32,701 bases of DNA, from assembly GCA_025463965.1 (NCBI GenBank), contig JAODBN010000104.1, positions 1 to 32,701 on the forward strand. Reading direction: 5' to 3'. The DNA is from Acidimicrobiaceae bacterium (GTDB taxonomy: Bacteria; Actinomycetota; Acidimicrobiia; Acidimicrobiales; Bog-793). This document shows, one piece after another, positions 1,054 through 27,489 of the stretch (position 1 is the first letter of the stretch; the number at the start of each line of letters is the position of its first letter). Both the position numbers and the translations under genes were made by a program. The notes below the pieces were generated by a model. It was not told the DNA's origin. It saw only the letters and a list, made by a program, of their open reading frames with translations, and made no database searches.

Positions 1054-1617
1054 GTGGCAACACGGAGGGCAAAACGACAGGGTGCGCGGGGACGCAGGGC
1101 GCTGACAGGCGCGCTGGCCATCGTCGCCTCCGTCATCTTCTGGGTGCTCTTTGCGCCCGTACAGCTCGGCGGTTCGATCACGTACTCGGTGACCGCAGGA
1201 ATCAGCATGCAACCCCTGCTCTACAAGAACGACCTCGCGCTCGTCCGGACCGAGTCCTCGTATCGAGTCGGCGAAGTAGTGCTCTACAACAGCCCGGTGC
1301 TGCACAAGCCGGTGCTACACCGGATTGTGCTGATCCAAAATGGCAACTACTTCTTCAAGGGAGACAACAACGACTTCGTCGACCCGGGGTACGCGACGAG
1401 AGCGGAGCTCGTCGGCAAGCTCTGGGTCCATGTCCCTCAGGCGGGGGCGGTCATTGGTTGGCTCGGCAAGCCCGCCCATTCAGCGATCCTGGCAGGGCTC
1501 GGAGCGTTCATCCTCGTCCTCGTGAGCGGCAAACCGGCCCGCAAGCGCAAACGTCGTCGGCATCGTCCCCGAGTTCGCATTGCTCTGGATGGCGTGGACG
1601 TGGGAGGTTCCCGCTGA
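1054..1617 (+). CDS. sipW: Signal peptidase I, SipW/ER-type (S26B, Ser-His)
   Basis: GAGGAG RBS then GTG; N-terminal TM; GISMQP (Ser), VLHRIV (His), FKGDNNDFVDP box; C-terminal TM and basic tail. Confidence 0.88.
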   Translation: MATRRAKRQGARGRRALTGALAIVASVIFWVLFAPVQLGGSITYSVTAGISMQPLLYKNDLALVRTESSYRVGEVVLYNSPVLHKPVLHRIVLIQNGNYFFKGDNNDFVDPGYATRAELVGKLWVHVPQAGAVIGWLGKPAHSAILAGLGAFILVLVSGKPARKRKRRRHRPRVRIALDGVDVGGSR

Positions 1618-1645
1618 AAGCCTCAGTGTTCGCCATGGAGACATA

Positions 1646-3343
1646 ATGCCAAGCAGCGAGGGCCCTTCGGTCGAGCGCCGAGGGGCACAGCCGGTGAACC
1701 CGGGTGCACAAGCCGTGCGGACTTCTCGGTCGTCCGACAACGAGCGTCGGTCGGGAATCGAGATGACGCCCGATCAGGTAGCGGCCCGGCGCGCTCCGCC
1801 CTTCCTTTCCGGCCCGAGGACCACGCTCGCTCTCCTGCTCGCTTTCCTGTTGCTTGGCGCGCTCTGCCTGGGCGTCGGGTTCACCCGACCGATCCACCGT
1901 GTCGCGCCGCTAACAGGAGCGTATGAGCAGGCCGGCCACTTCTCGTACAAGGGGGCCGTCAACTCCCCAACGCCCGTCTATCCCTCTGGTTTTGTCACGA
2001 GCGGCGAAGCCATCTACCCGAGCCTCATCAGCACTCTCGTCGTGACGTTCCACTACGAGTTCAAGTCCGGCCTACCTCACCAGGTGCACGGCACAATCCA
2101 GATGCGGGCGCTGCTCCTGTCGCAGTCCGACACCTGGCACCAGTTGACGAGTCTCGCGAATACGACCTCGTTCAGCGGAGATCAGGCCACCGTTACCGCG
2201 TCCCTCCGTCTAAAGGGCCTCTACACCCTCATAAATCGGGTTTCCGAACAGTCCGGCCTCACGGCGCAGAGTTATTTGGCGGACCTCCAGCCCGTCGTCC
2301 ACCTCGTCGGGCACGTCGGCGGACACCCGATCGCACAGACCTTCCTTCCGGTGATTCCCTTCGAGATCACCCCGACCGCGATCACCTTGAATATGGTCAC
2401 GGCCCCGGCGCCACCTGGCGCTACCTACGTACTGCCGTCCGCCAGCGTCGCGCTTGCGGCGACGCTCGCTCCGACAGCCTCGGGGAGCATTCCCCACCAA
2501 GTAGACGACTTCGTCGCCGTCGCGAGGTACCAGATAGACGTCTCGAGCATCCGCGTGCTGGGGATCGTGCTCGCCACCTTGGCCCTGCTCTTCGCCCTCT
2601 TCCACGACCAGCTTCGTCGCCGCCAGACGTTGCGCAGCGACGAGGAGCTGATCGCCTCGAGACTTCACTCCCTCATCGTTCCTGTGCGCTCGCTATCGAC
2701 GCCTGCTGGTACCGAGTGGATCGAAATACCGAACTTTTCGCATCTCGCCGGCATGGCCCAGTTCCTGGAACGGCCCATCCTCTACTGCGTGAACGACGGC
2801 AAGCGCAGCTATGCGGTCGATGACGACCCACGTCGCTACATCTACCGGCCTGCACAGCTCCTGCCGACACTGGGTGGCGCCGACGAGCCGCTCGGGGAAC
2901 GCGAGTCGGCGTTCGTCGCTCAGCGTGGGACCGAGAAACGCGCGAGAAACCGCTCCCGGCGCGTGATCGCGACCCGCTCCGCCGCCGGCCTCGTCGTCCT
3001 CACTGTCGCCCTCACTCTCGTCACGAGTTTCACCGCCAGCACCAACGTTCCGACGAGTCGCGCCGGGACGGTTCTCGAGACACGAACCCTCGCAGAGCTG
3101 ACACCCACTGGGTGCTCCAGCCTCGCCCTCACCTCGATCGTCGAGCACGGGGGAACGTTCACCAACAGCGCCTCGCACGTCCTCGTGATCGGGACCTCTG
3201 CGGCCGACACCATCACCGACAGCGGGACCGGTAACTGCATCGTCGGCGGAGCCGGCGTGGACACCGTCCACGCGACTTCGAGCGACATCTGCATCGTCGG
3301 TCCAACCAGCGGGGCGACCTACCGCACCTGCACCAAGTCCTAA
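1646..3343 (+). CDS. DUF5305-like membrane protein with C-terminal SipW-type secreted module
   Basis: GGAG RBS before ATG 1646 (alternative starts 1580, 1763). TM, extracellular beta-rich region, TM, then IPNFSHLAGMAQFLERPILY...YAVDDDPRRYIYR (DUF5305-like). Then a basic stretch, TM, SFTASTNVP and a 4-Cys GGxGxD-containing domain. Confidence 0.6.
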   Translation: MPSSEGPSVERRGAQPVNPGAQAVRTSRSSDNERRSGIEMTPDQVAARRAPPFLSGPRTTLALLLAFLLLGALCLGVGFTRPIHRVAPLTGAYEQAGHFSYKGAVNSPTPVYPSGFVTSGEAIYPSLISTLVVTFHYEFKSGLPHQVHGTIQMRALLLSQSDTWHQLTSLANTTSFSGDQATVTASLRLKGLYTLINRVSEQSGLTAQSYLADLQPVVHLVGHVGGHPIAQTFLPVIPFEITPTAITLNMVTAPAPPGATYVLPSASVALAATLAPTASGSIPHQVDDFVAVARYQIDVSSIRVLGIVLATLALLFALFHDQLRRRQTLRSDEELIASRLHSLIVPVRSLSTPAGTEWIEIPNFSHLAGMAQFLERPILYCVNDGKRSYAVDDDPRRYIYRPAQLLPTLGGADEPLGERESAFVAQRGTEKRARNRSRRVIATRSAAGLVVLTVALTLVTSFTASTNVPTSRAGTVLETRTLAELTPTGCSSLALTSIVEHGGTFTNSASHVLVIGTSAADTITDSGTGNCIVGGAGVDTVHATSSDICIVGPTSGATYRTCTKS

Positions 3344-3411: not shown

Positions 3412-4227
3412 TCAGGTGCGGAATGCAGTCTCGGTGGTGCTAGCTCGCGAAAGCAATTCCTCGGTAACCAGCGCCAGGACCTCGTCCCGGATGTGAGCAA
3501 CCTTCGGATCGCCAATGAACTCGCGTCGGACGCGCGGCTTGTCGAAGGGAACGGTCACAATCTGGTTAACTCGACCTGGAGCCCTCTCCATCACGATGAT
3601 CCGGTCGGAGAGGAACACTGCCTCGTCGACGTCGTGGGTGACAAAGACGGTGGTTGCCTCCGTCCTCGCCACGATGGCCGCGAGCTCCTCCTGCAGGCGC
3701 ATCCGGGTGAAGGCATCGAGCGCGCCCAATGGCTCGTCCATCAAAAGCACACTCGGCTCGGCAACGAGGGCGCGAGCCAAGCCGACTCGCTGCTGCATTC
3801 CTCCAGAAAGCTGATGCGGGAGTGACTGCTCGAAACCCTTCAGCCCAGTCAGCTCGATCTGCGCATCGACTCGGCTTCGCTTCTCGCTCTCAGAGAGGAC
3901 GCCTTTGACGGCCGTCAGCCCGAGGGCGATGTTGTCCCAGACCGAGCGCCAGGGCAGAAGTGCCGCGGCTTGGAACACGAAGCCGATTCTGTCCGGCACG
4001 CCACGAACCACACTCCCCCGGATCTTGATGCTGCCCGCGTCATAGGTGGTGAGGCCCCCGAACATCCGCAGCAGCGTCGTCTTGCCGCACCCGGAAGCCC
4101 CGATGATCGAGATGAATTCGCCCTTCCCGACGTTGAAGGACACGTCCTTCAGGGCGATGAAGGCACCGCTCTTGCCTTGCCAAAAGCGCTTGCCGACATG
4201 ACTGACCTCGATCACCGGAGCTTCCAT
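3412..4227 (-). CDS. ABC transporter ATP-binding protein, NitT/TauT (SsuB/TauB-like)
   Basis: Walker A GASGCGKT, LSGGMQQR signature, LLMDEPLGALD, VTHDVDEA. Confidence 0.95.
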   Translation of the reverse strand: MEAPVIEVSHVGKRFWQGKSGAFIALKDVSFNVGKGEFISIIGASGCGKTTLLRMFGGLTTYDAGSIKIRGSVVRGVPDRIGFVFQAAALLPWRSVWDNIALGLTAVKGVLSESEKRSRVDAQIELTGLKGFEQSLPHQLSGGMQQRVGLARALVAEPSVLLMDEPLGALDAFTRMRLQEELAAIVARTEATTVFVTHDVDEAVFLSDRIIVMERAPGRVNQIVTVPFDKPRVRREFIGDPKVAHIRDEVLALVTEELLSRASTTETAFRT

Positions 4228-4267
4228 GGAACTGGTGCTTCCTTCCGTTATCTCGTGTCCGCTGCGA

Positions 4268-5350
4268 TCAGCGGGCAGCCGCGCCGAGGTCTGCCAGCGC
4301 CTTCTTGCCGTAGCTGAGGTCAGACCATCCGGCTACTGCGGGCTGGGCCGTCAATGCGCCGACCTTGTTGTAGTAGATCTCCTGCAGCTTCAGCGGTGAG
4401 GCCGAGAGGATGCTTCCGTCCGGGTAAGCGCCGATGCTGCGCAGCTGATTGAAGAGTGACGCCGTCTGGGACGTGTTGATGCCGCTGTCGTAACTCGCGG
4501 TCTCCTTGACCAATCCAGCGTTGTTCGCCTTGTTGTTGAAGTACACGAACGAGAGCAGATCTGCCTCGTTCAGGGCGACCGCAGCCGTCTGGTGACTCTT
4601 CGCCCAAGTCGAGCGGGCAAACCACAGACCGTCGTAGAGGTCCTTGTTTTGCGTCATGTAGTCGTAGAGCACGTGGAAGCCCTGACCGGCAAGCGCGAAT
4701 TCCGATGCGTGGCTGAGCATCGTGGCATCGATCCGACCTGCCACCAGCGCGGCGAGGCGAGTCGACTGTCCACCGACGTTGAGGATGTTCACCTGGCTCT
4801 GCTTGAGGCCTGCCGCCTTCAAGGCGATCAATGCATCGACACCATTCTCGCCGACCATGTCCAAGATGCCGAGCGTCTTGCCCTTGAGGTCTGCAAGGGA
4901 CGAGATGTTCGGCCGGCCGAGGAGCACGTAGTCTTGGCGGGGCTCGGGAAGGGCGATCGCCTCGACAGGAATGCCGGAGTTGTAAGCGGCGAGGCCCACC
5001 GACAGGCCACCTTCCATGATGGTGCCACCGTGCAACATGTCGGCGTACTCAATGCTGGTGGAGGGTGCCCAGTGGATGGAGACCTTCGCTCCCCACTTGG
5101 CAAGCAGGTTGATCGCGTGAATCTCGATCTCGTTGCTCGTGGTAGCTGTGCCATCCATGATGAAGCTCATGTCGGTGCCCTTGAGCTTCGGGGGCACGAA
5201 GGAGGCAGTCCGCGGTGACTTCACGGAATGCACCGCGTGGCTCTTCGAGGCGAAGGCGTTCGTCATTCCAACCGAGCTGAGCAAGAGGCCCGCTCCGACG
5301 AGCGCAGCAGCCTTGGTTCCCAGTCCTTTTCTGCTCAACGATCCAACCAT
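4268..5350 (-). CDS. ABC substrate-binding protein, SsuA/THI5(NMT1)-like
   Basis: ATG 5350 with AGGGAGG RBS; signal peptide ending AFA; ISSLADLKGKTLGI and RLAALVAGRIDAT motifs; lies between permease and ATPase. Confidence 0.85.
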   Translation of the reverse strand: MVGSLSRKGLGTKAAALVGAGLLLSSVGMTNAFASKSHAVHSVKSPRTASFVPPKLKGTDMSFIMDGTATTSNEIEIHAINLLAKWGAKVSIHWAPSTSIEYADMLHGGTIMEGGLSVGLAAYNSGIPVEAIALPEPRQDYVLLGRPNISSLADLKGKTLGILDMVGENGVDALIALKAAGLKQSQVNILNVGGQSTRLAALVAGRIDATMLSHASEFALAGQGFHVLYDYMTQNKDLYDGLWFARSTWAKSHQTAAVALNEADLLSFVYFNNKANNAGLVKETASYDSGINTSQTASLFNQLRSIGAYPDGSILSASPLKLQEIYYNKVGALTAQPAVAGWSDLSYGKKALADLGAAAR

Positions 5351-5496
5351 TCTGATGACCCTCCCTAGTCGCATATGTGTGTAACAACAGCAGCCGTGGT
5401 GCATGTGGAACTTCGACGTTTCGCCATCGCCGCTCGAGTGCGCGGAGTCTCTTCAGCAAGCGCCGAGCGTGGCGCCGCAGCGCCGGGGGCTACGCC

Positions 5497-6369
5497 TTAA
5501 AAGCGGACCTGCTGCTCTGACGTGGTCGCGCCGACCCAAGGAAAGAAGCGGCGCTTTACCAGGTTGAGGAGAATGACGCCGATGACGCCCACCACCGATG
5601 CGGTAAAGACGCCCGCCAATAGGTACGCGGTCTGGAACGAGTTCCCGTAGTTGGTGACCAGGCCACCGAGGCCAGTCACGCTGACCTCCATCTCCGCGAT
5701 GAGCATTCCGATGAGCGCTTTTCCTAGAGCAATCCGCAGTCCGGCGAAGATGTAAGGGACCGCGTTAGGAAGCGTGATCTTGGAAACGACCTCCCAGCGA
5801 CTGAGCTTGTAGATGCTGGCCACGTCGATCAGCGCGGACGGGGTGCTCCGCACGCCGACGAAGGTGTTGATGATGACCGACCAGACGGCCAGAACGAACG
5901 TGACCGCGACTCGAGCTTCGAATCCGACTCCGAACCAGATGACCACGAGTGGTACGAGCGCAATCAGCGGCGTCGCCTGGAAGAAGTTGATGTAGGGGTC
6001 GAGGATCTTCTCGGCCACCTCGCTGCGCCCCATGAGAACGCCCGTGGCGATGCCCACCACGATCGCGAGGCCGAAGCCCACCCAGAGGTCTTCCATCGCA
6101 GTGAAGAAGGCTGGTATCAGCTGGCCGCGGCTGATCATGTGGCCGAAGGCGCTGATGGTCGAGGTCGGAGTGGAAAGCAGAATCGGGTTGATGCGGCTGC
6201 CGATCAGCTGCCATAGACCGAGGACAACGAGCACTGACACAACCGGCAAGATCCGCTTCAAGTTGCGAGAGGGACGATCGCTTCGGGCTTTGGGTTCGCC
6301 CAAATCGTCGCTCACTTCGTCAGCAACACCGAACGACGTAACGGACATGCTGGCGACCCGATCTGCCAT
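5497..6369 (-). CDS. ABC transporter permease, NitT/TauT (SsuC/TauC-like)
   Basis: Multiple TM helices; EAA-loop region LIDVASIYKLSRWEVVSKITLPNAVPYIFAGLR; AAGGAG RBS. Confidence 0.93.
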   Translation of the reverse strand: MADRVASMSVTSFGVADEVSDDLGEPKARSDRPSRNLKRILPVVSVLVVLGLWQLIGSRINPILLSTPTSTISAFGHMISRGQLIPAFFTAMEDLWVGFGLAIVVGIATGVLMGRSEVAEKILDPYINFFQATPLIALVPLVVIWFGVGFEARVAVTFVLAVWSVIINTFVGVRSTPSALIDVASIYKLSRWEVVSKITLPNAVPYIFAGLRIALGKALIGMLIAEMEVSVTGLGGLVTNYGNSFQTAYLLAGVFTASVVGVIGVILLNLVKRRFFPWVGATTSEQQVRF

Positions 6370-6473
6370 CTCGCTAGCTCCTTAGTCGGTCGGCCCAAGC
6401 CCTGGCTTGGTGCGCCGGATCAGGTTCGGACGTGAGCTAGCTCAGCCGCCCTTTCCCCCTACTCAGTGGCGTC

Positions 6474-6502
6474 ACCGTACCGATGTATACCGTGTATGTC
6501 AA
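6474..6502 (-). promoter_or_regulatory. Sigma70-type promoter TTGACA-17-TACGGT with GTATACA box in the spacer
   Basis: Minus strand reads TTGACA tacacgGTATACAtcgg TACGGT, about 105 nt upstream of the permease start. Confidence 0.75.
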
Positions 6503-6830
6503 GCAATATCAGGCATCGGAAGCCGACTCGCAGCCCCCTTTCATAGTGCCGAAACACAGGCGGGAGAGGTCGCCCTTTCAGTAATGAATGTCCAGGTCAG
6601 AGCGATGCGAATGCTTTCCGAGCAGGCCGAGCTGGCGCCGGCAATCGGCTGAGGCGTCGGGTTCATTCGGAGCGTGCTTCACCTCGCGTTGGAGAAACCG
6701 AACGCTGATAGCGGGAAGAAAATGACCGACAGACCGACAAGCCACCTATTACTTCCTCCCAGCGAGGGAGAGAAGGTGGCTGAGGAGACCGGCGCTCGTC
6801 TCGCGCTCACACTGCCGCCGAGGCGAGCTA

Positions 6831-6846
6831 GGAGGCAACCGCCTCC
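6831..6846 (-). terminator. GC hairpin just downstream of the gntR stop
   Basis: GGAGGC-aacc-GCCTCC, 15 nt after the stop. No clear U-tract. Confidence 0.35.
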
Positions 6847-6861
6847 CACAACGTCAGCGCG

Positions 6862-7581
6862 CTACAACTCAGACTTTTGCTGCATGTCCCGCACGACGAC
6901 CTGCAACTGCTCACTGACCTTCGCGAGGTGCTTTCGCAGCCACGAGCGCGCCCCTTCGACGTCGCCCTTTTCGAGACAGTCCAGGAGCCCGCTGTGGGAG
7001 CTAAAGGGCTCCTCGACCACGCTTTGGAGCACCAGGTATCCGCCCACTTCGGAGTGGAGACGAGAGACCAGCCTCAACGCGCGGTTCTGATTTGCGAGTG
7101 AGTACAAGTGCTCGTAAAACGGGATGCGTTGCATGATGGCGCCGCTGCTTGGCGGCGACTCGTCCAGCTCGGCTGCGAGCTTCCGGAGCTCCGCGAGGCG
7201 TTCGGGCGTGATGTGCGGCATCACCTTTTCGATCAAGTCGCACTCGACCAAGGTCCGCAAATCGTAGATCTCTTTGATGTCCTCGGGCCGTAATACCCTA
7301 ACGGTCGCTCCCCGATGGGGATGGATCGTCAGCAGACCCTCGGCCTGAAGCTGGCGCATCCCCGCACGAACGGGGATCCTGCTTATGCCGAGGATGTTCG
7401 CAATGCTGTCTTGAGGGAGCCGGTCGCCTGGCCGAAAGACGCCGCGATTGATCGCCTCGCGGACAAAGGCCTCGGCGAGATCTTCAGCGGTCCTCAGTGT
7501 CGGCTGAAATAGATCTGCCATTGATCGCAGCTCTTCGATGCCTTCCGGCATCTCGGGTCCACGCTCAACGTCTGCCCCCAC
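6862..7581 (-). CDS. GntR-family transcriptional regulator (FCD domain)
   Basis: wHTH FRPGDRLPQDSIANILGISRIPVRAGMRQLQAEGLL, HRGATV, EIYDLRTLVE, C-terminal H...GDVEGARSWLRKHL. Start could also be 7551. Confidence 0.93.
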   Translation of the reverse strand: MGADVERGPEMPEGIEELRSMADLFQPTLRTAEDLAEAFVREAINRGVFRPGDRLPQDSIANILGISRIPVRAGMRQLQAEGLLTIHPHRGATVRVLRPEDIKEIYDLRTLVECDLIEKVMPHITPERLAELRKLAAELDESPPSSGAIMQRIPFYEHLYSLANQNRALRLVSRLHSEVGGYLVLQSVVEEPFSSHSGLLDCLEKGDVEGARSWLRKHLAKVSEQLQVVVRDMQQKSEL

Positions 7582-9694: not shown

Positions 9695-10978
9695 TCAGGG
9701 CGAGAGCTCGACCTCAGGAGCATCCGTCGTCCGGCGGGCGAGGATCGCGCCGATCCCTGCGGCGGCAAAACAGGCCGCCGCCCCGACCATCAGCGCGACA
9801 CGAGCACTCGCCGCCGCGACGACCCACCCGATCACCGGCCCTCCGATCGGCGTCGTTCCCTGGAACGCCATCGACCACAGCGACATCGCCCGCCCGCGCA
9901 TGGAGAGCTCGGACCCCAGCTGCACCGTCGAGTTGCTGACCGTGATGAACGAGATGCTGAAGACTCCGACCGCTATCAGAGCGACGTACTCGACAGCTAC
10001 CACCGGGGCGACGGCGGCTGCCACGTTCGCGGAACCGAATCCCACTGCGGCGACGAGAAGCGCCCGGGCTCCGACGCGCTTCTTCCCCGCTGTGAGAACG
10101 CCGCCGGCAACTGCACCGAGGCCCATCGTCGCGTACATGAACCCGAAGGTCCGAGAACCGCTGTGGAACGTCTGGGTCGCGACGAGCGGCAACGACACGG
10201 GGTACTCGTAAGTGAACGTACCGATGATGACCATCATCAGGATCGCCATCGAGAGCTCCCTGCTCTTCTTGGCGTAGCGGATGCCAGCACGAAGCTGGCC
10301 CGAACTTCTGGCCAGAAAGGGAACCTTGTTGAGGGTGGCCTTGTCCATGGTCTTGAGTGCCAAGATCACCGCCAAAAAGGTGGCGGCATTGACCACGAAG
10401 CAGATTGCGACGCCAGCTACCGCTATCACGACCCCCGCGATCGCGGGCCCGATGGCCCGCGCCGCATTGATCATGATCGCGGTGAGGCTGACGGCATTCG
10501 GGACATCGTCTGGGCCGACCAGTTCATAGAGGATCGCCTGGCGGGACGGGAGGTCGAACGCCGTGGTGAAGCCGAGCACCGACGCGAGCACGCAGATCTC
10601 CCAATAGCGGGTGACGTGACTGAGCGTGAGGACCGCGAGCACGACTGCCTGGAAGGCCATGATTGCCTGCAGCAAAATCTGCAGGCGCCGACGGTCGACT
10701 CGATCGATGATGACGCCGGCGTAGGCACCGAGGAGAAGCAGTGGCAGCGTCTGGAGCGCAATGACGATTCCGAGCCTCGAGCTCGAGTGCGTCAGGCTTA
10801 GGACTAGCCACGACTGTGCCGCCGCCTGCATCCAGGTTCCCACCAGGGACGTCGACTGCCCGAAGAAGTACCTCCGGAAATTCGGCAGGCGAAGAGAGGA
10901 GAACCTCCCCCGCTCGGCCGGACCAAGGGTGCTCGCAGTGGTGCGGTCGCCCGACTCGATCATCGAGGCGGAGTCCAC
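9695..10978 (-). CDS. MFS transporter (MFS_3 / H+ antiporter-like)
   Basis: About 12 TM; NFRRYFFGQSTSLVGTWMQ, GVIIDRVDRRR, AFDLPSRQA, MRGRAMS motifs. Confidence 0.9.
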   Translation of the reverse strand: MDSASMIESGDRTTASTLGPAERGRFSSLRLPNFRRYFFGQSTSLVGTWMQAAAQSWLVLSLTHSSSRLGIVIALQTLPLLLLGAYAGVIIDRVDRRRLQILLQAIMAFQAVVLAVLTLSHVTRYWEICVLASVLGFTTAFDLPSRQAILYELVGPDDVPNAVSLTAIMINAARAIGPAIAGVVIAVAGVAICFVVNAATFLAVILALKTMDKATLNKVPFLARSSGQLRAGIRYAKKSRELSMAILMMVIIGTFTYEYPVSLPLVATQTFHSGSRTFGFMYATMGLGAVAGGVLTAGKKRVGARALLVAAVGFGSANVAAAVAPVVAVEYVALIAVGVFSISFITVSNSTVQLGSELSMRGRAMSLWSMAFQGTTPIGGPVIGWVVAAASARVALMVGAAACFAAAGIGAILARRTTDAPEVELSP

Positions 10979-11168
10979 AGTGCCGACGGGCGGCCCGACG
11001 GGGCGCGGTCGGTCAGTGGTCCTGGGTACCCGGTCGCCACACTCGTCACCGCCTTGCGTACGGTCGCAACTGCCGAGAGCCCTTGCGGACGCTCCCGTCG
11101 CCCCGCAGCGCGGGGGTGGTCCTAGTTGTCGAACAACGTTCTCCGGCGGACAGCCGTCGTCGTTGGCG

Positions 11169-12071
11169 CTACGAAGCGCTGATGGCGCGCTCGAGATCGT
11201 CCATGTTCAGCGCCCTGCTTCCCAGCGCAAGATCCGTACCACCGCTGACCATCGCCCGGAACACGAGCTTGCGCACTTGGCGCGCGTCAATCGAACGCTC
11301 CGCCAAGCGATCGGCCAGTGATTGCAGCCGGTCTCCTGCCAGGTCCATCGTGGTGTTGGGCAGTTCGCTGAGGCTGTCGCGCAGGATCTCGACGATCGCG
11401 TCGGCCGAAGGGGGGCCCAAGACCTCGAGGATGTCCACTCGGGACAAGACTGCCTCGTCGACAGCCTCGGGGAAGTTCGTCGTGGCGACGAACACCACGT
11501 TCGGGTGAGCACGTGCCACGTGGTCCAGCCCCGTCAGCACTGCTTCGGTCGAGCGATGGACATCCGCCGGGTTGGTGTCGGTCGACGTCCATCGTCTACT
11601 TACTGCAAGCCCCTCGACCTCGTCGATGAGCACCACGACCGGCGCGCCGTCGTGCGCGACGTCGGGGATCGCCCGTTCGAACAGTCGAGCGATTCCCCGC
11701 TGGGACTGGCCCAACAGCTCGCTCGGCAGCGCGTGTGGGTCGATGAGAACGAACCGCACGCCTGAGGCGATACCACGTTGGCGCAGCTCCCTCGCCGCGC
11801 GGTCGGCGAGCCCATGCGCCAACGTGGTCTTGCCGGTTCCGGGCGGCCCACTCAGAAGGATCAGGCCGTGAACCGGGAGTCCAACATCCGACATCTTCCT
11901 GCCAGGACCGAGGCAGAACAGCATCGCATTCAGGAGACGCTCCTTCACCCCGGGCGGGGTGATGATCCGGTCCCATCGTTCGGTCCACTGGTCAGCTGGC
12001 AGATCGACGAGGGCGGAGATGCCCGCCTGACGGTTGGCAGGAGAGAGCTCGAATGCGGACTCGTTGCTCAC
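11169..12071 (-). CDS. Pch2/TRIP13-type AAA+ ATPase (CBASS Cap6-like), 300 aa
   Basis: GTG 12071 overlaps the cupin TGA (GTGA). Motifs: LPVHGLILLSGPPGTGKTTLA, IDPHALPSELLGQSQR, VLIDEVEGLAVSR, NPADVHRSTEAVLTGLD, ATTNFPEAVDEAVLSRVD. These match the Pch2/TRIP13 clade pattern. Confidence 0.85.
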   Translation of the reverse strand: MSNESAFELSPANRQAGISALVDLPADQWTERWDRIITPPGVKERLLNAMLFCLGPGRKMSDVGLPVHGLILLSGPPGTGKTTLAHGLADRAARELRQRGIASGVRFVLIDPHALPSELLGQSQRGIARLFERAIPDVAHDGAPVVVLIDEVEGLAVSRRWTSTDTNPADVHRSTEAVLTGLDHVARAHPNVVFVATTNFPEAVDEAVLSRVDILEVLGPPSADAIVEILRDSLSELPNTTMDLAGDRLQSLADRLAERSIDARQVRKLVFRAMVSGGTDLALGSRALNMDDLERAISAS

Positions 12072-13105
12072 TCGGGACGCCCGGCATCCTTGTCCGGCCA
12101 CTGGATGCCGGACAGATCGGGGGCATCCAGCTTGGGCAGCTCGGACCACAGGTCCATCGGGTCGAGCAGGACGCGCATTAGATCGTAGAGGGCGTCGAAG
12201 TTGTGCACCCGGATCAAGCGAGCGGTGTTGTTCTTGTCGTCGTTGAAGTGTTGGTGCCATGCCCAGTGGTCGACGACCACGAGGTCACCAGGCCCCCACT
12301 CGTAGGACACGTCATCGATGTCGCTGTGGCCATGGCCGCTCACCACGTGGAGCCATGCTTCGCCACCGTGGCGGTGCCGTGATTGCCAGAGTCCGGGGGC
12401 AAGCTCGTGCATGACCGCGGTCAGGCCGGAAGTGCGGAACCCGATCGACTGGTCAACGAGAAATGCGCTTCTCGCCCCCCGCTTGGTGACGCGAGGCGTG
12501 ACCTCGTCCCAGCGCGTGATCAAGCGCCGGTCTTCGGTTGACTGGGTCTCCGCGAGCCGCTCGGACCGGCGGGCATAGCCGTCGGAGCCGGGCACCTTGA
12601 CGGTGCGAGGCGCCAGCGGGAGGTCCTTCACCGGCGTGTCCCCGCCGTCTTCGAGCATCGCCATGCCGAGGGCCTCGTGCATGGGCTGCACGCTCCAGGT
12701 CACAAAGCGGGCGTCGGTGGCCCCTTCGTTGCCATGTCGGTGCCAGGCCCATGCGGGCAGGTGGACGGTGTCCCAGGGACGCCACTGGATGCGAACGCCG
12801 TCGATCTCGGTCCAACCCGATCCTGACGTCACGAACATCATGGCGTCCCACGAGTGCCGGTGAATCGTCGAGGTGTTGCCTGCCGGGATCTCGTGCAAGG
12901 TCGCGTCGAGCACCTTGGTCGGGCTCTCCCCGTCAGCGCCCATGTAGACGCCCCGCCGCATCCGGCGGGCGGGCGAGTCCTCGAGCTTCACGTCGGCTTC
13001 TCGGATGATCGTCCGGCGATACTTCCGCCAGTCCTCGACCACCTGGGCACGTCGCTGCTTCTGCACCTCGTAATGCGTCACCGTCTGCGTCACGGTTTTA
13101 GCCAA
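12068..13105 (-). CDS. Bicupin metalloenzyme (gentisate 1,2-dioxygenase-like fold), 345 aa
   Basis: TTG start at 13105 with GGAGGGG RBS. Two cupin motifs: HRHSWDA...HLPAWAWHRHGN and HRHGGEA...DHWAWHQHFN. Confidence 0.85.
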   Translation of the reverse strand: MAKTVTQTVTHYEVQKQRRAQVVEDWRKYRRTIIREADVKLEDSPARRMRRGVYMGADGESPTKVLDATLHEIPAGNTSTIHRHSWDAMMFVTSGSGWTEIDGVRIQWRPWDTVHLPAWAWHRHGNEGATDARFVTWSVQPMHEALGMAMLEDGGDTPVKDLPLAPRTVKVPGSDGYARRSERLAETQSTEDRRLITRWDEVTPRVTKRGARSAFLVDQSIGFRTSGLTAVMHELAPGLWQSRHRHGGEAWLHVVSGHGHSDIDDVSYEWGPGDLVVVDHWAWHQHFNDDKNNTARLIRVHNFDALYDLMRVLLDPMDLWSELPKLDAPDLSGIQWPDKDAGRPE

Positions 13106-13133
13106 AGCAACCCCTCCAGGCTCGGATCGCCGA

Positions 13134-13163
13134 AGTATAATGGATACATTCCAGCTCCGGCAA
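13134..13163 (-). promoter_or_regulatory. Promoter TTGCCG-18-TATACT with TGTATCCA box, driving cupin-TRIP13
   Basis: Minus strand reads TTGCCG gagctggaaTGTATCCAt TATACT; the -10 is 28 nt upstream of the TTG start. Confidence 0.6.
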
Positions 13164-13364
13164 TGCGCCGACCGTCGAAAATGACGCTTCTCGAGAAACC
13201 AGGGCACAACCCAAGCAACGCCCGATCCCAGGCATTTTCAGGGTTCTTGGTATGCAAAGCAACGTCTTCATCGAGACGCCGTCCGACCCGTCACGAGCCT
13301 CGTACTGCAGACCGATACATCATGGACCCCGTGCGACGCGGCCGGGCCATCTCCGTCGAGCGGC

Positions 13365-15728
13365 TCACTCGTCGTCTGTCCGATCCGAGATCAACCGCCA
13401 GACACGCTCAGGCGTAAGCGGAATGCGATCGGGCCACCGGCCGATCGCCCGAGCCACCGCCGTGACGACGGCCGCTGCGATCGGATTCAAAGACCCTTCC
13501 CCCGAGCCCTTGGCACCGTACGGACCGACTCCGTCACGCCGCTCTGCCAGCATCAAGTCGATCCGCGACGGCAGGTCTCGCATGCGTGGAATCCGGTAGT
13601 CGACCAGGTTGGGGTTGACCACCTGGGGTCCGTCGTAGATGAGCTCTTCGAACAGCGAGAGACCGAGGCCCTGGGTAGCCGCGCCGAGATCCTGCGCTTC
13701 TACAGCCTGAGGATTGATGGCGAAACCTACATCCCCGACCGTCGCCAACTGCTCGACGGTGACGGCGCCGGTCTCGGGATCGATCCTGCAGCCGACACCG
13801 ACCATCCCGATCTCCCAGAACGGTGGCATCTGCTTGGTCACACCGGAGCGCCGCACCGTGCCCACTCCGGTCACCTCACCGGCCGAGGCCCCGAACCACT
13901 TCTTGACGATCTCGCCGTAGCGAAGGATCCTGTTGTCTTCGAGGGAGAAGCCACCGGGGCACTGGGTGATCGTGTCGATGTCGACGTTCTCCACTTCCGC
14001 CGCCATCGCCCGCATCTTGGAGAGCGCGTCGGCACAAGCCCTCTGGAGAGCAAGGCCGGCGAGGGTGGTCGTACGACTTGCTCCCGTGGTGCGCTCGTAG
14101 GCGGTCGAACCGGTGTCGGACTGGCGCACCGCGACCTGTCGCAGCTCGATGCCGAACTCCTCAGCAGCGATCTGTCCGAGCAATGAGCGGCTTCCCTGGC
14201 CCATCTCGGTCGATCCGCTGAGGACGATCACCGAGCCGTCCGTCTCTACTCGCACGGCTGCGGTCGACACGGGAAAGGCGCCGGCGTCGGAGGCAGAGCA
14301 AGCGAACCCCACCCCGTACCACTTCGTATTCGACGGCTCACCCATCTTCAAGGCCGAGAGGAGCATCTCGAGATCGGCGGGAAGATCCGCGTCGATCCCC
14401 CGCTTGCCTTGCAGGATCTCCTCGCCGGGCTGCACCAGATTCCGGCGGCGGATCTCTGCGGAGTCGATGCCGAGCTCCTCGGCGGCACGCTCGAGGTTGG
14501 TCTCGCCAGCAAGCACACCCTGAGGGGCACCGAAGCCCCGGTAGGACGACGCCGGAGACGTGTTGGTGTAGATCGAGCGGCCACGGACGCGCAGGTTGGG
14601 GACACGGTACGGGCCGAAGCAGCGATTGACCGACTTCGCGATCACGAGCGGGCTGTTGTCCGCATATGCGCCGGAGTCCATGACGATGTCGAACTCGCGA
14701 GCAATGAACCGGCCGTCGGCATCGAGGGCGCTACGTACCTTGACCACCGCGGAGTCGACACGCGTCGTGTAGATGGACTCTTCGACGTCCAAGACGAGCT
14801 TCACCGGCCTGCCGACGTGCCACGAGGCGACCGCAGCGAGCGGCTCGACCTTCGTGTACGACTTCGACCCGTAGCCGCCACCAAGGTACGGTGCGCGGAC
14901 CGTGACCGCCGAAAGCGGGAGGCCGAACACCCTCGCGAGGTCGTCACGGACCATGAACGGGTGCTGTGCGGTGCTGTCGACCTCCAGCCGACCGTTGGCG
15001 TAGGACGCGATCGCGTTGTAGGGCTCCATGGCGTACGCGTACAGCATGGGAAAGTGCATCGAGCTCTCGACGACGACCGCGGCCGACTCCCATGCAGCGT
15101 CGACGTCGCCCCACTCGAGCGTCACCTCGTGCGCGACGTTGTCGACCCGGGGCCCACCCTCTGGCGAGCCCGCGCCCTCGCCCGGGCTGAGGTTGTCCAC
15201 GTCCAGAAGCGGCAGGTCTACTTCGTGGACCAGCACCGCCCCAGCGGCGAGGGCGTCCTCCGCCGTGATCACCGCGGGCAGGTCCTCGTACTCGACCTGA
15301 ACGAGCTCGAGCGCGTCAGCTGCAGCCGCCTCGGTTTCTGCGACGACGAGTGCGACTGGCTCGCCGTAGTAGCGGACCTTGCCGTTCGCGAGGATCTCGT
15401 GATCGGCAACGATGTGCCCGAATCGCGAGCAGAGCCCCGTGAGGGTGTCGCAAGTCAGCACGGCGACGACTCCCGGCGCCGAGCGAGCGGCATCAGTGTC
15501 GATGGCGAGGATTCGGGCGTGTGCCCTGGTCGATCGGACGATCTTCGCGGAGGCCGATCCGCTGCGCCGCAGGTCTACGCAGTAGACCGCCGCGCCGGTC
15601 ACCTTCTCGAGGAGGTCGGGCCGGAGCACCGAGTGTCCGACATACGCGTGGCCGGACTCTTGGCGAGCCCCCTGGCCGTGCTCGCCCGAGCCGTCGAGGC
15701 TCGAGGAAATCTGGCCCACGTCAGCCAT
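13365..15728 (-). CDS. Xanthine dehydrogenase-family molybdopterin-binding (large) subunit
   Basis: ATG 15728 overlaps the small-subunit stop. KVTGAAVY, GGGYGSK, SYRGFGAPQ, EMGQG, GASRTT, GAKGSGEG (catalytic Glu). Confidence 0.93.
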   Translation of the reverse strand: MADVGQISSSLDGSGEHGQGARQESGHAYVGHSVLRPDLLEKVTGAAVYCVDLRRSGSASAKIVRSTRAHARILAIDTDAARSAPGVVAVLTCDTLTGLCSRFGHIVADHEILANGKVRYYGEPVALVVAETEAAAADALELVQVEYEDLPAVITAEDALAAGAVLVHEVDLPLLDVDNLSPGEGAGSPEGGPRVDNVAHEVTLEWGDVDAAWESAAVVVESSMHFPMLYAYAMEPYNAIASYANGRLEVDSTAQHPFMVRDDLARVFGLPLSAVTVRAPYLGGGYGSKSYTKVEPLAAVASWHVGRPVKLVLDVEESIYTTRVDSAVVKVRSALDADGRFIAREFDIVMDSGAYADNSPLVIAKSVNRCFGPYRVPNLRVRGRSIYTNTSPASSYRGFGAPQGVLAGETNLERAAEELGIDSAEIRRRNLVQPGEEILQGKRGIDADLPADLEMLLSALKMGEPSNTKWYGVGFACSASDAGAFPVSTAAVRVETDGSVIVLSGSTEMGQGSRSLLGQIAAEEFGIELRQVAVRQSDTGSTAYERTTGASRTTTLAGLALQRACADALSKMRAMAAEVENVDIDTITQCPGGFSLEDNRILRYGEIVKKWFGASAGEVTGVGTVRRSGVTKQMPPFWEIGMVGVGCRIDPETGAVTVEQLATVGDVGFAINPQAVEAQDLGAATQGLGLSLFEELIYDGPQVVNPNLVDYRIPRMRDLPSRIDLMLAERRDGVGPYGAKGSGEGSLNPIAAAVVTAVARAIGRWPDRIPLTPERVWRLISDRTDDE

Positions 15729-22116: not shown

Positions 22117-22203
22117 GGCCGATCGCCCTTCTCTTTGCTCGTGGCGCGCGCCGCCCGTCCGGCGTGTGCCGGGAGCTGGCGGTTCCGCCAGTCTCGCCGC
22201 CGT

Positions 22204-22232
22204 ATCATGTATCCAATTGCCGGCTGGAGCAA
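22204..22232 (-). promoter_or_regulatory. Promoter TTGCTC-17-CATGAT overlapped by a TGGATACA box
   Basis: Minus strand reads TTGCTC cagccggcaattggata CATGAT. The 8-mer (TGTATCCA at + 22208-22215) is the same as in the cupin promoter. Confidence 0.5.
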
Positions 22233-23498: not shown

Positions 23499-24365
23499 AT
23501 GATCGCCGTTGACGACCTGGGAAACACCACCAACCCGCCAGAAGCCCCTGTCGTGGACCGTAAGGTCGCTCGCCCGTCGAGGCGAGCATGGAGGCGAGGC
23601 GCGAGCTTGGCGGCCGGACCGCTGTCCGTGGTCGTGTTCCTCGGTATCTGGCAGATCGCAGGAGGACGGATCAACCCGATCCTCTTGTCGCAGCCGACCG
23701 CGGTCGCTCAAGCGTTCGGCCACTTGGCCAGAACCGGAATCTTGTGGCCCGCGTTCGCGCGAGCCATGGAAGACCTTCTCGTTGGATACCTGTCGGCAGT
23801 CGTCATCGGCATTGGCACCGGCGTGCTCATGGGCCGGCACCGTGCAGTCGAGAGAGTGCTGAGCCCCTATGTCACCTTCTTCCAGGCCACACCACTGATC
23901 GCCCTTACCCCGCTGGTGGTCATCTGGTTCGGTCTCGGCTTCATGTCCGAGATCGCCATCACGTTCCTCCTGGCAGTGTGGACGATCATCATCAACACCT
24001 GTGAGGGCGTGAAGTCCACCCCCCCACTCCTGCTCGACATGGCCCGGATTTATCACGCCTCCGAGCGCAAGGTGGTCCGAAAGATCGCCATACCCAATGC
24101 GGTCCCCTACATCTTCGCCGGACTGAAGATCGCGGTCGCAAAGGCATTGATCGGCATGATCATCGCTGGCATGGACATCACCTTGAAAGGCCTCGGCGGC
24201 CTTGTCACCACTTACGGCAACGAATTTCAGACCGCTTCCCTGCTCGCCGCGGTGATCACCTCCTCGGTGGTGGGCGTCATTTTGACCCTTCTCATCAACG
24301 TCCTACGACGGGTGATCGCTCCGTGGAGCATCAATGTCGAGGTGAAGACGAAGGGCCGCTGGTAG
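23499..24365 (+). CDS. ABC transporter permease, NitT/TauT; paralog of 5497-6369
   Basis: GGAG RBS before ATG 23499. Shares RINPILLS, FFQATPLIAL, PNAVPYIFAGL and GLGGLVTxYGNxFQTA with the left copy. Confidence 0.93.
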   Translation: MIAVDDLGNTTNPPEAPVVDRKVARPSRRAWRRGASLAAGPLSVVVFLGIWQIAGGRINPILLSQPTAVAQAFGHLARTGILWPAFARAMEDLLVGYLSAVVIGIGTGVLMGRHRAVERVLSPYVTFFQATPLIALTPLVVIWFGLGFMSEIAITFLLAVWTIIINTCEGVKSTPPLLLDMARIYHASERKVVRKIAIPNAVPYIFAGLKIAVAKALIGMIIAGMDITLKGLGGLVTTYGNEFQTASLLAAVITSSVVGVILTLLINVLRRVIAPWSINVEVKTKGRW

Positions 24366-24459
24366 GCGAGCTCACCGGCGCCTGTCACACACAGCGGGCT
24401 GCGATCCGAGTGCGACCGCGGGATCCGAGATTCCAACAGGGAAGAAAGAACTTGGCTGA

Positions 24460-25290
24460 ATGTCGAATGCAATGAGCACCGACCGTGGACCCTTGCTCGA
24501 GGTCAGTCACGTCACAAAGCGGTTCCCACGCCCAGAAGGGCCTGGACTGCTCACGGTTCTCGAGGACATCAACCTCTCGCTCGCACCCGGAGAGTTCGTC
24601 AGCCTGATCGGGCCCTCTGGGTGCGGGAAGACGACGCTGATCCGCTTGATGAGCGGGCTCATGGGATGCGACGACGGCTGGATCGCCCTACGTAACGAGC
24701 GGTTCGAGTCCGTTCCGAAGGGAGTGGGCTTCGTGTTCCAAGAGCCCGCCCTTCTGCCCTGGTGCACGGTCTCCGAGAACATCGCGTTCGCCTTGACCGC
24801 ATCCGCCGACGCCGGCAAGCGACGGCCGGGGGTCGACGACCTCGTCAACAAGCAGCTCGAGCTGACGAGCTTGACCCCTTTCGCCAGTTACTACCCAACG
24901 CAGATCTCCGGTGGAATGCAACAGCGGGTCGGCCTGGCACGGGCTCTCGTCGGGAGCCCGGATGTGCTGTTCATGGACGAGCCTCTCTCGGCTCTCGACG
25001 CCTTCACCAGGACCGCCCTACAAGCGGACCTCGGTCGCATCATCGAGGCCGCGGCGACAACGACCGTGCTGGTCACTCACGACATCGACGAGGCGATCTT
25101 CATGTCGGACCGAGTGGTCGTCATGAAAGCGAACCCCGGTGAGATCGCCCAGATCGTGGACGTGCCGCTTGCCCGACCCCGCAGCCACGAGGCGCTGCTC
25201 GACGATGCGGACTACGTCGCCCTGCGCACCGAGCTCATGCGGATCCTGCTCAAGGTGTCGCCACACATCTTCAACAACTCAGGCAACTGA
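24460..25290 (+). CDS. ABC transporter ATP-binding protein, NitT/TauT
   Basis: GPSGCGKT, ISGGMQQR, LFMDEPLSALD, VTHDIDEA. Start is 24460 or 24472. Confidence 0.95.
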   Translation: MSNAMSTDRGPLLEVSHVTKRFPRPEGPGLLTVLEDINLSLAPGEFVSLIGPSGCGKTTLIRLMSGLMGCDDGWIALRNERFESVPKGVGFVFQEPALLPWCTVSENIAFALTASADAGKRRPGVDDLVNKQLELTSLTPFASYYPTQISGGMQQRVGLARALVGSPDVLFMDEPLSALDAFTRTALQADLGRIIEAAATTTVLVTHDIDEAIFMSDRVVVMKANPGEIAQIVDVPLARPRSHEALLDDADYVALRTELMRILLKVSPHIFNNSGN

Positions 25291-25394
25291 GTCTGAAAGC
25301 CTCCGGCGAAGGCCGGGGTAAGCGGCATCTCGTTCCCCCCGCTACGGGTCGGCGCGGATGCTCACCAGTGTCCATCCCAGACCGAAAGGAAGAC

Positions 25395-26486: not shown

Positions 26487-26498
26487 GCAGCCGAGATC

Positions 26499-26543
26499 GC
26501 CGGCCGGGATACGAGACGCCGAGTCTCGTCGTGCCCGGCCGGC
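26499..26543 (+). terminator. Long GC-rich stem-loop after the SBP gene (terminator or mRNA stabiliser)
   Basis: GCCGGCCGGG..ACGAGAC-gccga-GTCTCGT..CCCGGCCGGC inverted repeat, 12 nt after the stop. Confidence 0.6.
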
Positions 26544-26570
26544 GGCTCCGGTCTACTTCCGACTAGGAGG

Positions 26571-27350: not shown

Positions 27351-27489
27351 ACGCCGTTCGAGGCTGGGGGGTACCTAGGATGTCCATGCGACTGAAGCGT
27401 CAACCGGTGAGCGCGTCAGCGCGTGTGCGACAGAGGGGACTTCACCTGTCATCCAGCAGAGGGCACCACGATCGCCGGGCAGCACAGCG

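Follow-up and report, generated by a model that had tools for sequence, protein, structure and literature searches.

Our study examined a stretch of 32,701 nucleotides (nt) from an Acidimicrobiaceae bacterium (GenBank assembly GCA_025463965.1, contig JAODBN010000104.1), which is called the window below, and in it a gene for a two-domain cupin (bicupin) that is directly followed by a gene for an AAA+ ATPase of the TRIP13/Pch2 (Cap6) family. The two genes are proposed to encode an enzyme and its remodeller as a co-translated pair. Protein lengths are given in amino acids (aa).

12068..13105, (-) strand: bicupin gene, 345 aa, upstream member of the pair
11169..12071, (-) strand: TRIP13/Pch2 (Cap6)-family AAA+ ATPase gene, 300 aa, downstream member of the pair
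12068..12071, (-) strand: GTGA overlap, in which the ATPase start GTG and the cupin stop TGA have two bases in common
13111..13117, (-) strand: Shine-Dalgarno-like GGAGGGG, five bases ahead of TTG 13105

The cupin frame ends in CCC GAG TGA, with the TGA at 12070-12068, and the AAA+ frame opens with the GTG at 12071-12069. The GTGA overlap read in the sequence agrees with a first-pass annotation of the window, which had placed the beginning of the AAA+ gene at GTG 12071, within the cupin stop codon. This start was favoured over ATG 12260 because the G+C content at third codon positions (GC3) of the ATPase frame is 0.79 from GTG 12071 to the stop and falls to 0.33 in the preceding 63 codons, which supports a reading of the longer, ATG-initiated frame as non-coding. 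The most likely start of the cupin gene (GC3 of 0.85) is TTG 13105, which gives the N-terminus common to the orthologues.

The ATPase and the cupin

The ATPase is a true bacterial member of the TRIP13/Cap6 family, as indicated by profile, fold, motifs and tree. A full-length match was obtained to the PADLOC profile PDLC00915 'TRIP13' (270.5 bits, E 4.7e-81; residues 12-298 aligned to positions 7-289 of the 302 in the profile), and the solved structures closest to it by sequence were human TRIP13 and Caenorhabditis elegans PCH-2 (E 1.6e-30 to 2.5e-27, the best over residues 24-241). An AlphaFold (AF2) model, based on an alignment with 28 homologues, had a predicted local distance difference test score (pLDDT) of 88.6. 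The ten best Foldseek matches of this model were all PCH-2, TRIP13 or the Trip13 of Escherichia coli MS115-1 (4xgu, 6f0x, 5vq9 and 6p8v_C), with p97, Msp1, katanin and Vps4 ranking behind them; 6p8v_C, the Trip13 chain in the HORMA:CdnC:Trip13 complex of E. coli MS115-1, gave template modelling (TM) scores of 0.80/0.79. Pfam assigned a generic AAA domain only, and NCBIfam returned classic-clade AAA+ names that were all far under their cut-offs.

The Walker A (GPPGTGKT), Walker B (LIDE), sensor 1 (TTN) and arginine-finger (SRVD) motifs are intact and invariant in the 28 homologues. The first-pass annotation had read five motifs as those of Pch2/TRIP13 rather than of MoxR/CoxD or FtsH; all five are present (LPVHGLILLSGPPGTGKT, PHALPSELLGQSQR, DEVEGLAVSR, NPADVHRSTEAVL and TTNFPEAVDEAVLSRVD), and profile, sequence and fold lead to the same assignment. 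The positions of the functional segments were as follows:

11826..11849, (-) strand: Walker A GPPGTGKT (residues 75-82), invariant in the homologue alignment
11706..11726, (-) strand: pore loop 1 segment PSELLGQ (residues 116-122), aligned with FSKWFSE of human TRIP13
11619..11630, (-) strand: Walker B LIDE (residues 148-151), with D150 and E151 invariant
11553..11585, (-) strand: pore loop 2 segment STDTNPADVHR (residues 163-173), which holds the conserved H172 and where the model pLDDT dips
11472..11486, (-) strand: sensor 1 region ATTNF (residues 196-200), with T197, T198 and N199 invariant
11433..11450, (-) strand: arginine-finger region VLSRVD (residues 208-213), with S210, R211 and D213 invariant

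Two other assignments of the ATPase were considered and rejected. For a MoxR/CoxD-type ATPase, AAA_5 scored 20.0 bits, below its cut-off of 22, and no AAA_3 or MoxR family was listed. For an FtsH or proteasomal ATPase, the NCBIfam matches were far below cut-offs, and TRIP13 ranked first in the profile, sequence and fold comparisons. MoxR-class proteins such as CoxD and NorQ are AAA+ ATPases that are encoded beside metalloenzymes and help to build the metal site. The window resembles these systems in having an AAA+ gene beside that of a probable metalloenzyme, and it also holds a molybdenum hydroxylase with XdhC and MocA, yet its ATPase is not MoxR-like and finds its best NCBIfam and PDB matches within the classic AAA+ clade.

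Eukaryotic TRIP13 and PCH-2, although they are the best sequence and fold matches of the window ATPase, are proteins of ~430 aa that have a larger N-terminal domain and FSKWFSE as pore loop 1. The Cap6 protein of the type III cyclic-oligonucleotide-based anti-phage signalling system (CBASS) of E. coli MS115-1 (6p8v) belongs to the same family and has the same size and fold, and the ATPase motifs of the window protein are intact. The present locus differs from that of the CBASS Trip13 in having no HORMA protein, no CD-NTase (the nucleotidyltransferase of CBASS) and no effector; the constant partner is a bicupin, the setting is catabolic and pore loop 1 is different. A search for homologues also found giant proteins of 900-2100 aa (P0128, P0131, P0139, P0146, P0162 and others), in which three to five stretches are 31-35 % identical to the ATPase, a multi-AAA arrangement.

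The cupin was matched by the Pfam family Cupin_2 in two stretches (E 7.3e-25), and its best sequence match in the PDB was the gentisate dioxygenase 3bu7 (E 3.6e-18). The AF2 model (pLDDT 84) has two barrels, and its best Foldseek matches were 4fag and 3bu7 (TM 0.54-0.59), with gentisate/salicylate dioxygenases matched at E 5.6e-21 to 1e-18. The window cupin and the gentisate/salicylate 1,2-dioxygenases (3bu7, 2d40, 4fag and 2phd) have the same two-barrel fold and an HxH...H motif aligned in both domains; the window cupin is, in contrast, 18-22 % identical to them and carries an extra ladder of threonines in an N-terminal tail and a conserved C-terminal W-P...R-P tail. Scores against the curated families were far under the cut-offs (65 bits for TIGR02272 gentisate_1_2, cut-off 442; 75.9 bits for NF049978, 5-aminosalicylate dioxygenase, cut-off 650), and the cupin is therefore assigned by its sequence to a distinct, unnamed subfamily of gentisate/salicylate 1,2-dioxygenase-like bicupins with no named equivalog.

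In the N-terminal barrel, H82, H84 and H122 form a three-histidine site that aligns with HRH and WHEH of 3bu7, whose histidines we take to be the metal ligands of that enzyme. H84 and H122 are invariant among 21 orthologues, the set to which the invariant residues below refer, and H82 is replaced by Asn in three of them; the HxH...H motifs of both barrels are invariant or almost so. From sequence and model, the bicupin is proposed to be a metal-dependent enzyme of the gentisate/salicylate-dioxygenase fold, with these motifs:

12845..12862, (-) strand: N-terminal cupin domain motif HRHSWD (residues 82-87), aligned to HRH of 3bu7, with H84, S85, W86 and D87 invariant
12728..12757, (-) strand: N-terminal cupin domain second motif PAWAWHRHGN (residues 117-126), with W119, W121, H122, R123, G125 and N126 invariant
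12359..12376, (-) strand: C-terminal cupin domain motif HRHGGE (residues 244-249), with H244, R245, H246 and G248 invariant
12242..12271, (-) strand: C-terminal cupin domain second motif DHWAWHQHFN (residues 279-288), with D279, H280, H284, H286 and N288 invariant

The C-terminal tail of the cupin (residues 313-345, 12071-12169) has the pattern LDP..L..E, with W336-P337 and R343-P344 invariant in the same orthologues, and the model pLDDT is low over residues 301-320.

Linkage of the two genes and relation to CBASS

The conservation of the pair was surveyed from both of its members. Of 8000 sequences scored against the ATPase in a word-index search, 2130 were homologues at E ≤1e-10, and the best 120 were 52-72 % identical. 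A pattern scan that took one genome per species resulted in 80 loci, where the cupin was sought by tblastn with the window cupin. An orthologous bicupin (47-69 % identical) was found directly upstream and on the same strand in 62 of these 80 loci (one clipped by a contig end), and in 58 of the 62 the ATPase could start as close as -10 to +16 nt from the cupin stop. One further locus (L052) has the orthologous bicupin ~1 kb downstream of the ATPase, and the remaining 16 loci without any cupin represent one clade in type III CBASS-like operons. In a Jatrophihabitans metagenome-assembled genome (MAG; L019, 5320-6864), a single-domain cupin of 197 aa replaces the bicupin before TRIP13, and an S15-type alpha/beta hydrolase like that of the window comes next.

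Carriers of the pair were found in the Chloroflexota, the Actinomycetota (Streptomyces, Mycobacterium, Arthrobacter, Amycolatopsis and Actinoplanes), the Acidimicrobiia, the Pseudomonadota (Burkholderiales) and the Acidobacteriota. The Chloroflexota loci have the same gene order as the window, namely alpha/beta hydrolase, amidohydrolase, luciferase-like monooxygenase (LLM), cupin and ATPase, and the actinobacterial loci have a PotA-type ATP-binding cassette (ABC) transporter, a GntR regulator and a second, different cupin around the pair. The cupin is the sole constant neighbour of the cupin-linked ATPase, and the rest of the neighbourhood varies.

On the cupin side, metagenome contigs scanned with a cupin alignment gave 80 loci (56-77 % identical), of which 74 were informative and six had no room for a neighbour. 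The ATPase was present at 60 of the 74, directly downstream in 59 and upstream in one. Among 400 sampled genomes of the same phylum, three had the cupin at E ≤1e-40: one with an adjacent, convergent ATPase gene (L086), one that is 95 % complete and lacks the ATPase, and one with a split cupin and likewise no ATPase (L087). The survey of homologue neighbourhoods for cupin versus HORMA linkage, which the first-pass annotation had put forward, thus favours the cupin from both sides and across phyla, and we describe the linkage as strong but not obligatory. At one locus (L086, 2148-4080, genome G286), the cupin and TRIP13 genes are convergent and ~70 nt apart, and the cupin has an alternating threonine tail. 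At another (L087, 3622-4637, genome G207), the cupin lies in two frames and is probably a pseudogene, its tail has no alternating pattern and the genome has no TRIP13 match.

The cupin-adjoining ATPases differ in their N-terminal parts. Three of the 62, from an Intrasporangium MAG (L026, from 5914), Arthrobacter sp. AZCC_0090 (L034, from 5920) and an Actinomycetota MAG (L068, from 5962), have His-rich N-terminal extensions with 9, 11 and 5 histidines, respectively, before the conserved core, which can be likened to metallochaperones. At residues ~17-33 (loci L021-L081), LPADHHDGPWD is conserved in the actinobacterial and proteobacterial clade, whereas the corresponding segment in the window ATPase and in those of the Chloroflexota is LPDDxWxDRWD, and the His pair in this N-terminal domain is therefore clade-specific.

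The CBASS-like loci have the order ATPase, 155-aa protein, bacHORMA_2 protein and SMODS CD-NTase, followed in L027 by a DUF6602 protein; their Pfam make-up was checked in two of the 16 (L027 and L056), with DUF6602 scanned in L027. When open reading frames (ORFs) were clustered, 13 of these loci had a member of the CD-NTase family and 12 had one of the HORMA2 family. The 155-aa protein, the first HORMA-like protein of these loci, had no Pfam match. A match on a Rhodococcus opacus plasmid is annotated as the same type of CBASS operon, and no enterobacterial record was among the matches listed in the plasmid tblastn search. The relatives of the ATPase in CBASS loci with two HORMA proteins are 40-46 % identical to it.

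A quick maximum-likelihood tree was inferred from 81 ATPases and three other AAA+ proteins of the genome from which the window derives, on a sample biased towards relatives of the query. The 81 ATPases, with the 16 CBASS-linked ones among them, were split from the three outgroup proteins by a branch with a Shimodaira-Hasegawa-like approximate likelihood ratio test (SH-aLRT) value of 100. The phylogeny that the first-pass annotation had called for therefore groups the ATPase with the Trip13 proteins of CBASS-like operons and away from other AAA+ proteins. The CBASS-linked ATPases form a single clade (SH-aLRT 98), around which the cupin-linked ATPases form three groups, and the cupin label changes four times on the tree, compared to 19.1 times in shuffles. 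One clade of all 65 cupin-linked rows was not rejected by the approximately unbiased (AU) test (p 0.41). Because the tree is compatible with the cupin-linked ATPases having arisen once, beside the two-HORMA CBASS clade, the immune Trip13 and the metabolic remodeller may be sister inventions, one of them perhaps recruited from the other. Clustering of the homologues at 50 % gave 116 representatives at E ≤1e-30, and the cupin-type pore loop 1 was found in 22 of the 99 representatives of 230-450 aa among the best 150.

Genes for HORMA, CD-NTase and effector proteins were sought in the window and beyond it. None of the 28 window ORFs scanned with Pfam matched a HORMA, CD-NTase (SMODS) or effector family, as the first-pass annotation had stated for the window. 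In the source genome, which is 77 % complete, the Pfam families bacHORMA_1, bacHORMA_2 and HORMA had no match, in a search whose controls were also silent. Profiles built from the sister-locus HORMA2, 155-aa and CD-NTase families found nothing among all 33,507 open frames of this genome (best E 0.13; 9.9 for the CD-NTase profile of 13 sister-locus proteins). A bacHORMA_2 protein was also absent from four other pair-carrying genomes (one complete genome and two single-chromosome MAG records among them), with a Brevundimonas control (G005) detected at E 8.7e-45. No effector adjoins the pair, which has a major facilitator superfamily (MFS) transporter downstream and, upstream of the ATPase, the cupin and the molybdenum hydroxylase, and the cupin had no PADLOC match. 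All three kinds of gene that define CBASS, those for HORMA, CD-NTase and effector proteins, were sought without success, and the pair therefore does not belong to such a system.

These results bear on two other explanations of the pair. It could be an anti-phage module, either a reduced or a new one, that descends from type III CBASS and in which the cupin serves as the sensor or the effector; the catabolic setting would then have arisen by chance. The ATPase does match a defence-system profile in PADLOC, and its nearest non-cupin relatives lie in CBASS-like operons, yet the missing CD-NTase, HORMA and effector genes and the silence of PADLOC on the cupin make this very improbable. The neighbours are, moreover, hydrolases, oxidoreductases, transporters and GntR regulators, in an order conserved in the Chloroflexota, and the motifs with which ring-cleaving dioxygenases bind their metal are retained in the cupin.

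Alternatively, the ATPase could serve another client, either a pathway enzyme or an unrecognized HORMA-like protein encoded elsewhere, with the cupin a mere operon neighbour. Such a partner may be unassembled, given the completeness of the genome, and the 155-aa CBASS protein indicates that HORMA-like folds can escape profile searches. There are also ORFs in the window without a Pfam match (1580-3343, 25368-26486 and 29762-30214 on the (+) strand and 30263-30733 on the (-) strand), the first two also without an NCBIfam match. We nevertheless regard another client as unlikely: the cupin is the sole constant neighbour over the 80 loci, the sister-locus profiles found nothing in the source genome, and the four further carriers lacked bacHORMA_2 in a search whose control was positive. 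The cupin also has a client-like tail, described below, and the second cupin family next door has none.

The threonine tail and proposed action on the cupin

The cupin begins with a short tail in which every second residue from position 4 is a threonine.

13076..13105, (-) strand: disordered tail, cupin codons 1-10 (M-A-K-T-V-T-Q-T-V-T), with Thr at 4, 6, 8 and 10; proposed grip site

The tail is followed by an invariant H11-Y12 and, in the model, by a helix at residues 11-28; pLDDT is <50 for residues 1-5 and averages 53 for residues 1-10. At least three alternating Ser/Thr residues within the nine residues after Met were found in 56 of 59 ATPase-linked cupin orthologues, and the tail is exactly ten residues long in 55 of the 59. 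The same measure of alternation was satisfied by 3.4 % of 3769 crude N-termini from the source genome and by none of 19 members of the second cupin family from the same actinobacterial neighbourhoods. Among metagenome cupins with the ATPase, 51 of 54 have at least three alternating Ser/Thr residues. Thr-rich cupin tails were read at L024, L047 and L083, which are loci of Acidimicrobiia, and a short tail was seen in one case, on the cupin of the genome that lacks the ATPase.

A similar pattern was found in the sister loci. The HORMA2 proteins of the 16-locus CBASS clade begin with runs of threonine at alternate positions, and 10 of 12 have three or more of these among their first 15 residues, whereas the 155-aa proteins of these loci have no alternating Thr start. 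The E. coli Trip13 study of Ye et al. (bioRxiv, 10.1101/694695) describes a structure in which the HORMA N-terminus is gripped by the pore, with His173 of pore loop 2 bonded to Ser/Thr at every second position. The alternating Ser/Thr residues are reported there to be conserved in HORMA N-termini, and remodelling was lost for a HORMA protein without residues 1-12; eukaryotic TRIP13, as described in the same source, acts on HORMA proteins via the adapter p31comet. The HORMA client of the CBASS Trip13 and the cupin proposed here as a client thus both have an alternating Ser/Thr N-terminus, that of the cupin being disordered in the model. Pore loop 2 has the form [TA]NPxDVHRA in both groups of ATPases, with the His present in all 16 CBASS-linked proteins and in 60 of the 65 that are cupin-linked, and NPxDVHRA is common to the window ATPase and its two-HORMA CBASS relatives. 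This HORMA-like ladder of threonines on the cupin, which was not seen in the first-pass annotation, strengthens the idea of the cupin as the client.

We propose that the TRIP13-family ATPase would act on the cupin as an ATP-driven unfoldase, with both the hexamer and the threading being predicted. Its pore loops would grip the disordered N-terminal tail of the cupin, as bacterial Trip13 grips the Ser/Thr-alternating N-terminus of HORMA, and the ATPase would then pull on the helix at residues 11-28, so that the N-terminal barrel, or else the oligomer, would be loosened or unfolded in part. This might release a wrong or oxidized metal or a dead-end ligand and allow refolding with the right metal, so that the enzyme, acting in the catabolic cluster, would be reactivated or matured. 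The ATPase would then have an activase role comparable to that of Rubisco activase.

Rubisco activases (Rca and CbbX) are AAA+ hexamers that pull a terminal tail of a metabolic enzyme and thereby reopen an inhibited active site. The working principle proposed here is alike, whereas the AAA+ lineages and the client are different, and the comparison is one of analogy, with homology not implied. Buried cupin metal sites can reportedly trap the wrong metal during folding, as is said of MncA, and iron dioxygenases are inactivated by oxidation; because of both, an ATP-driven reset could be useful to the cupin. The MncA structure 2vqa was among the Foldseek matches of the cupin model. The His-rich extensions of three ATPases and the retained HxH...H motifs of the cupin are a hint of metal handling.

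With the tail, the linkage and the analogy to HORMA remodelling taken together, we consider it somewhat more probable than an even chance that the cupin is the client of the ATPase and that the effect on the enzyme is positive, by reactivation or metal exchange. The family assignment, the conserved adjacency, the lack of HORMA genes and the tail pattern with its HORMA2 counterpart are observed; that the ATPase binds the cupin, from which end it pulls and that the enzyme gains in activity are what we infer from these comparisons. Alternatively, the cupin could be the client of an ATPase that acts as a brake or in quality control, by keeping an oxygen-activating enzyme silent until substrate arrives or by clearing damaged copies. 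The evidence from tail and linkage suits a brake equally well as activation, and the sole tested role of bacterial Trip13 is negative, with signalling attenuated by disassembly in Ye et al. (10.1101/694695). Nevertheless, co-translation in catabolic operons fixes the ratio of the ATPase to the enzyme and gives no obvious control, and no protease gene is among the conserved neighbours; we regard braking and clearance as improbable roles for this ATPase.

Several observations weigh against an activase that acts on the cupin through its tail. At 14 of the 74 informative cupin loci, with at least 300 nt of room downstream, there was no ATPase in the available contig DNA, and in genome G270, which is 95 % complete, a cupin of 58 % identity was found but TRIP13 was not, at E 1e-20; the cupin enzyme can therefore exist without the motor. 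Four of eight metagenome cupins without the ATPase also have at least three alternating Ser/Thr residues, and the tail counts come from kin orthologues and show conservation, not independent events. Five cupin-linked ATPases have Q, Q, I, M and S in place of H172. The His follows the Walker B Glu at a distance of 21 residues in the window ATPase versus 14 in E. coli Pch2, so that H172 and His173 may not correspond to each other. In pore loop 1, cupin-linked ATPases have PS[EQD][ML]LGE and CBASS-linked ones xSxxLGK or xSxxHGQ. No fusion of the two proteins was found, as none of four longer ATPase homologues at E ≤1e-30 had a cupin domain (one had PF01252), although this is weak evidence.

A broader claim, which we rate at a little under an even chance, is that the metabolic bicupin, with a Thr handle that was either acquired or anciently shared, represents a second, non-HORMA class of TRIP13 client, and that the ATPase is a 'cupin activase' widespread in soil Chloroflexota and Actinomycetota. 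To our knowledge, TRIP13 has been seen only as a HORMA remodeller, whether in meiosis, in the spindle checkpoint or in bacterial CBASS. In those parts of the literature that were examined, TRIP13/Pch2 was treated solely in this role, and no description of a cupin-linked TRIP13, or of a TRIP13 with a non-HORMA enzymatic partner, was found in the literature searched, which left most subscription journals out of reach. The first-pass annotation had mentioned a pair of cupin and AAA ATPase from lumichrome catabolism; the main text of PMC12746152, the one paper found on a cupin in that catabolism, has a cupin, LumY, and the terms AAA, ATPase and ATP are absent from it, so that such a pair was not supported.

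If the proposal is correct, a HORMA-free lineage of TRIP13 has been coupled to an enzyme, and the motor with its code for tail recognition would be reusable for metabolism. It would also represent a new kind of enzyme activase, with a bearing on the loading and repair of buried cupin metal sites, and heterologous expression of such dioxygenases might need the ATPase partner. As it concerns just two soluble proteins of small size and a tail of 10 residues, the hypothesis is amenable to direct test.

Promoter region and surrounding catabolic cluster

The first-pass annotation had given the pair a promoter of its own that carries a box shared across the cluster. A promoter-like site does precede the cupin gene, and it was the one site found in 10900-13450, compared to 0.2 expected.

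13134..13163, (-) strand: promoter-like site TTGCCG, 18 nt, TATACT; a consensus match only, overlapping the near-palindromic ATGTATCCATTATACT

The shared box fared less well. Its core, TGTATCCATTATAC, has one more match in the window, with three mismatches, at 22202-22215, and this two-match level was reached by 2 of 100 shuffles; for the 16-mer form, a second match in the window was not found. With one degenerate second copy, an operator box shared by the cluster is weakly supported. Position 13163, which had been taken as the limit of the pair, is out of frame and does not mark the beginning of the cupin gene; the -35 hexamer TTGCCG has its first base there.

The MFS transporter gene adjoins the pair downstream, where XdhC and MocA-like genes are also found, and a three-subunit molybdenum hydroxylase with CoxG lies directly upstream. 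The cluster also encodes two luciferase-like oxidoreductases, an amidohydrolase of the dihydroorotase/allantoinase/hydantoinase type, an alpha/beta hydrolase, a class II aldolase-fold protein, a short-chain dehydrogenase/reductase, two NMT1-type ABC transporters and two GntR regulators. NCBIfam matches were all below cut-offs and were xanthine-dehydrogenase-like, dihydroorotase/allantoinase/hydantoinase-like, F420/FMN LLM and UilS-like lactonase. Judging from these gene families, the substrate of the cluster is probably an N-heterocycle or a cyclic amide.

The 372-aa ORF at 25368-26486, which comes after an ABC permease and ATPase, may encode a binding protein. The catabolic genes are bracketed by two paralogous modules in inverted orientation (3589-7488 and 23623-27761), each with an ABC ATPase, a permease, a binding protein and a GntR regulator, and the arms of these modules contain stretches of 80-230 nt that are 70-76 % complementary.

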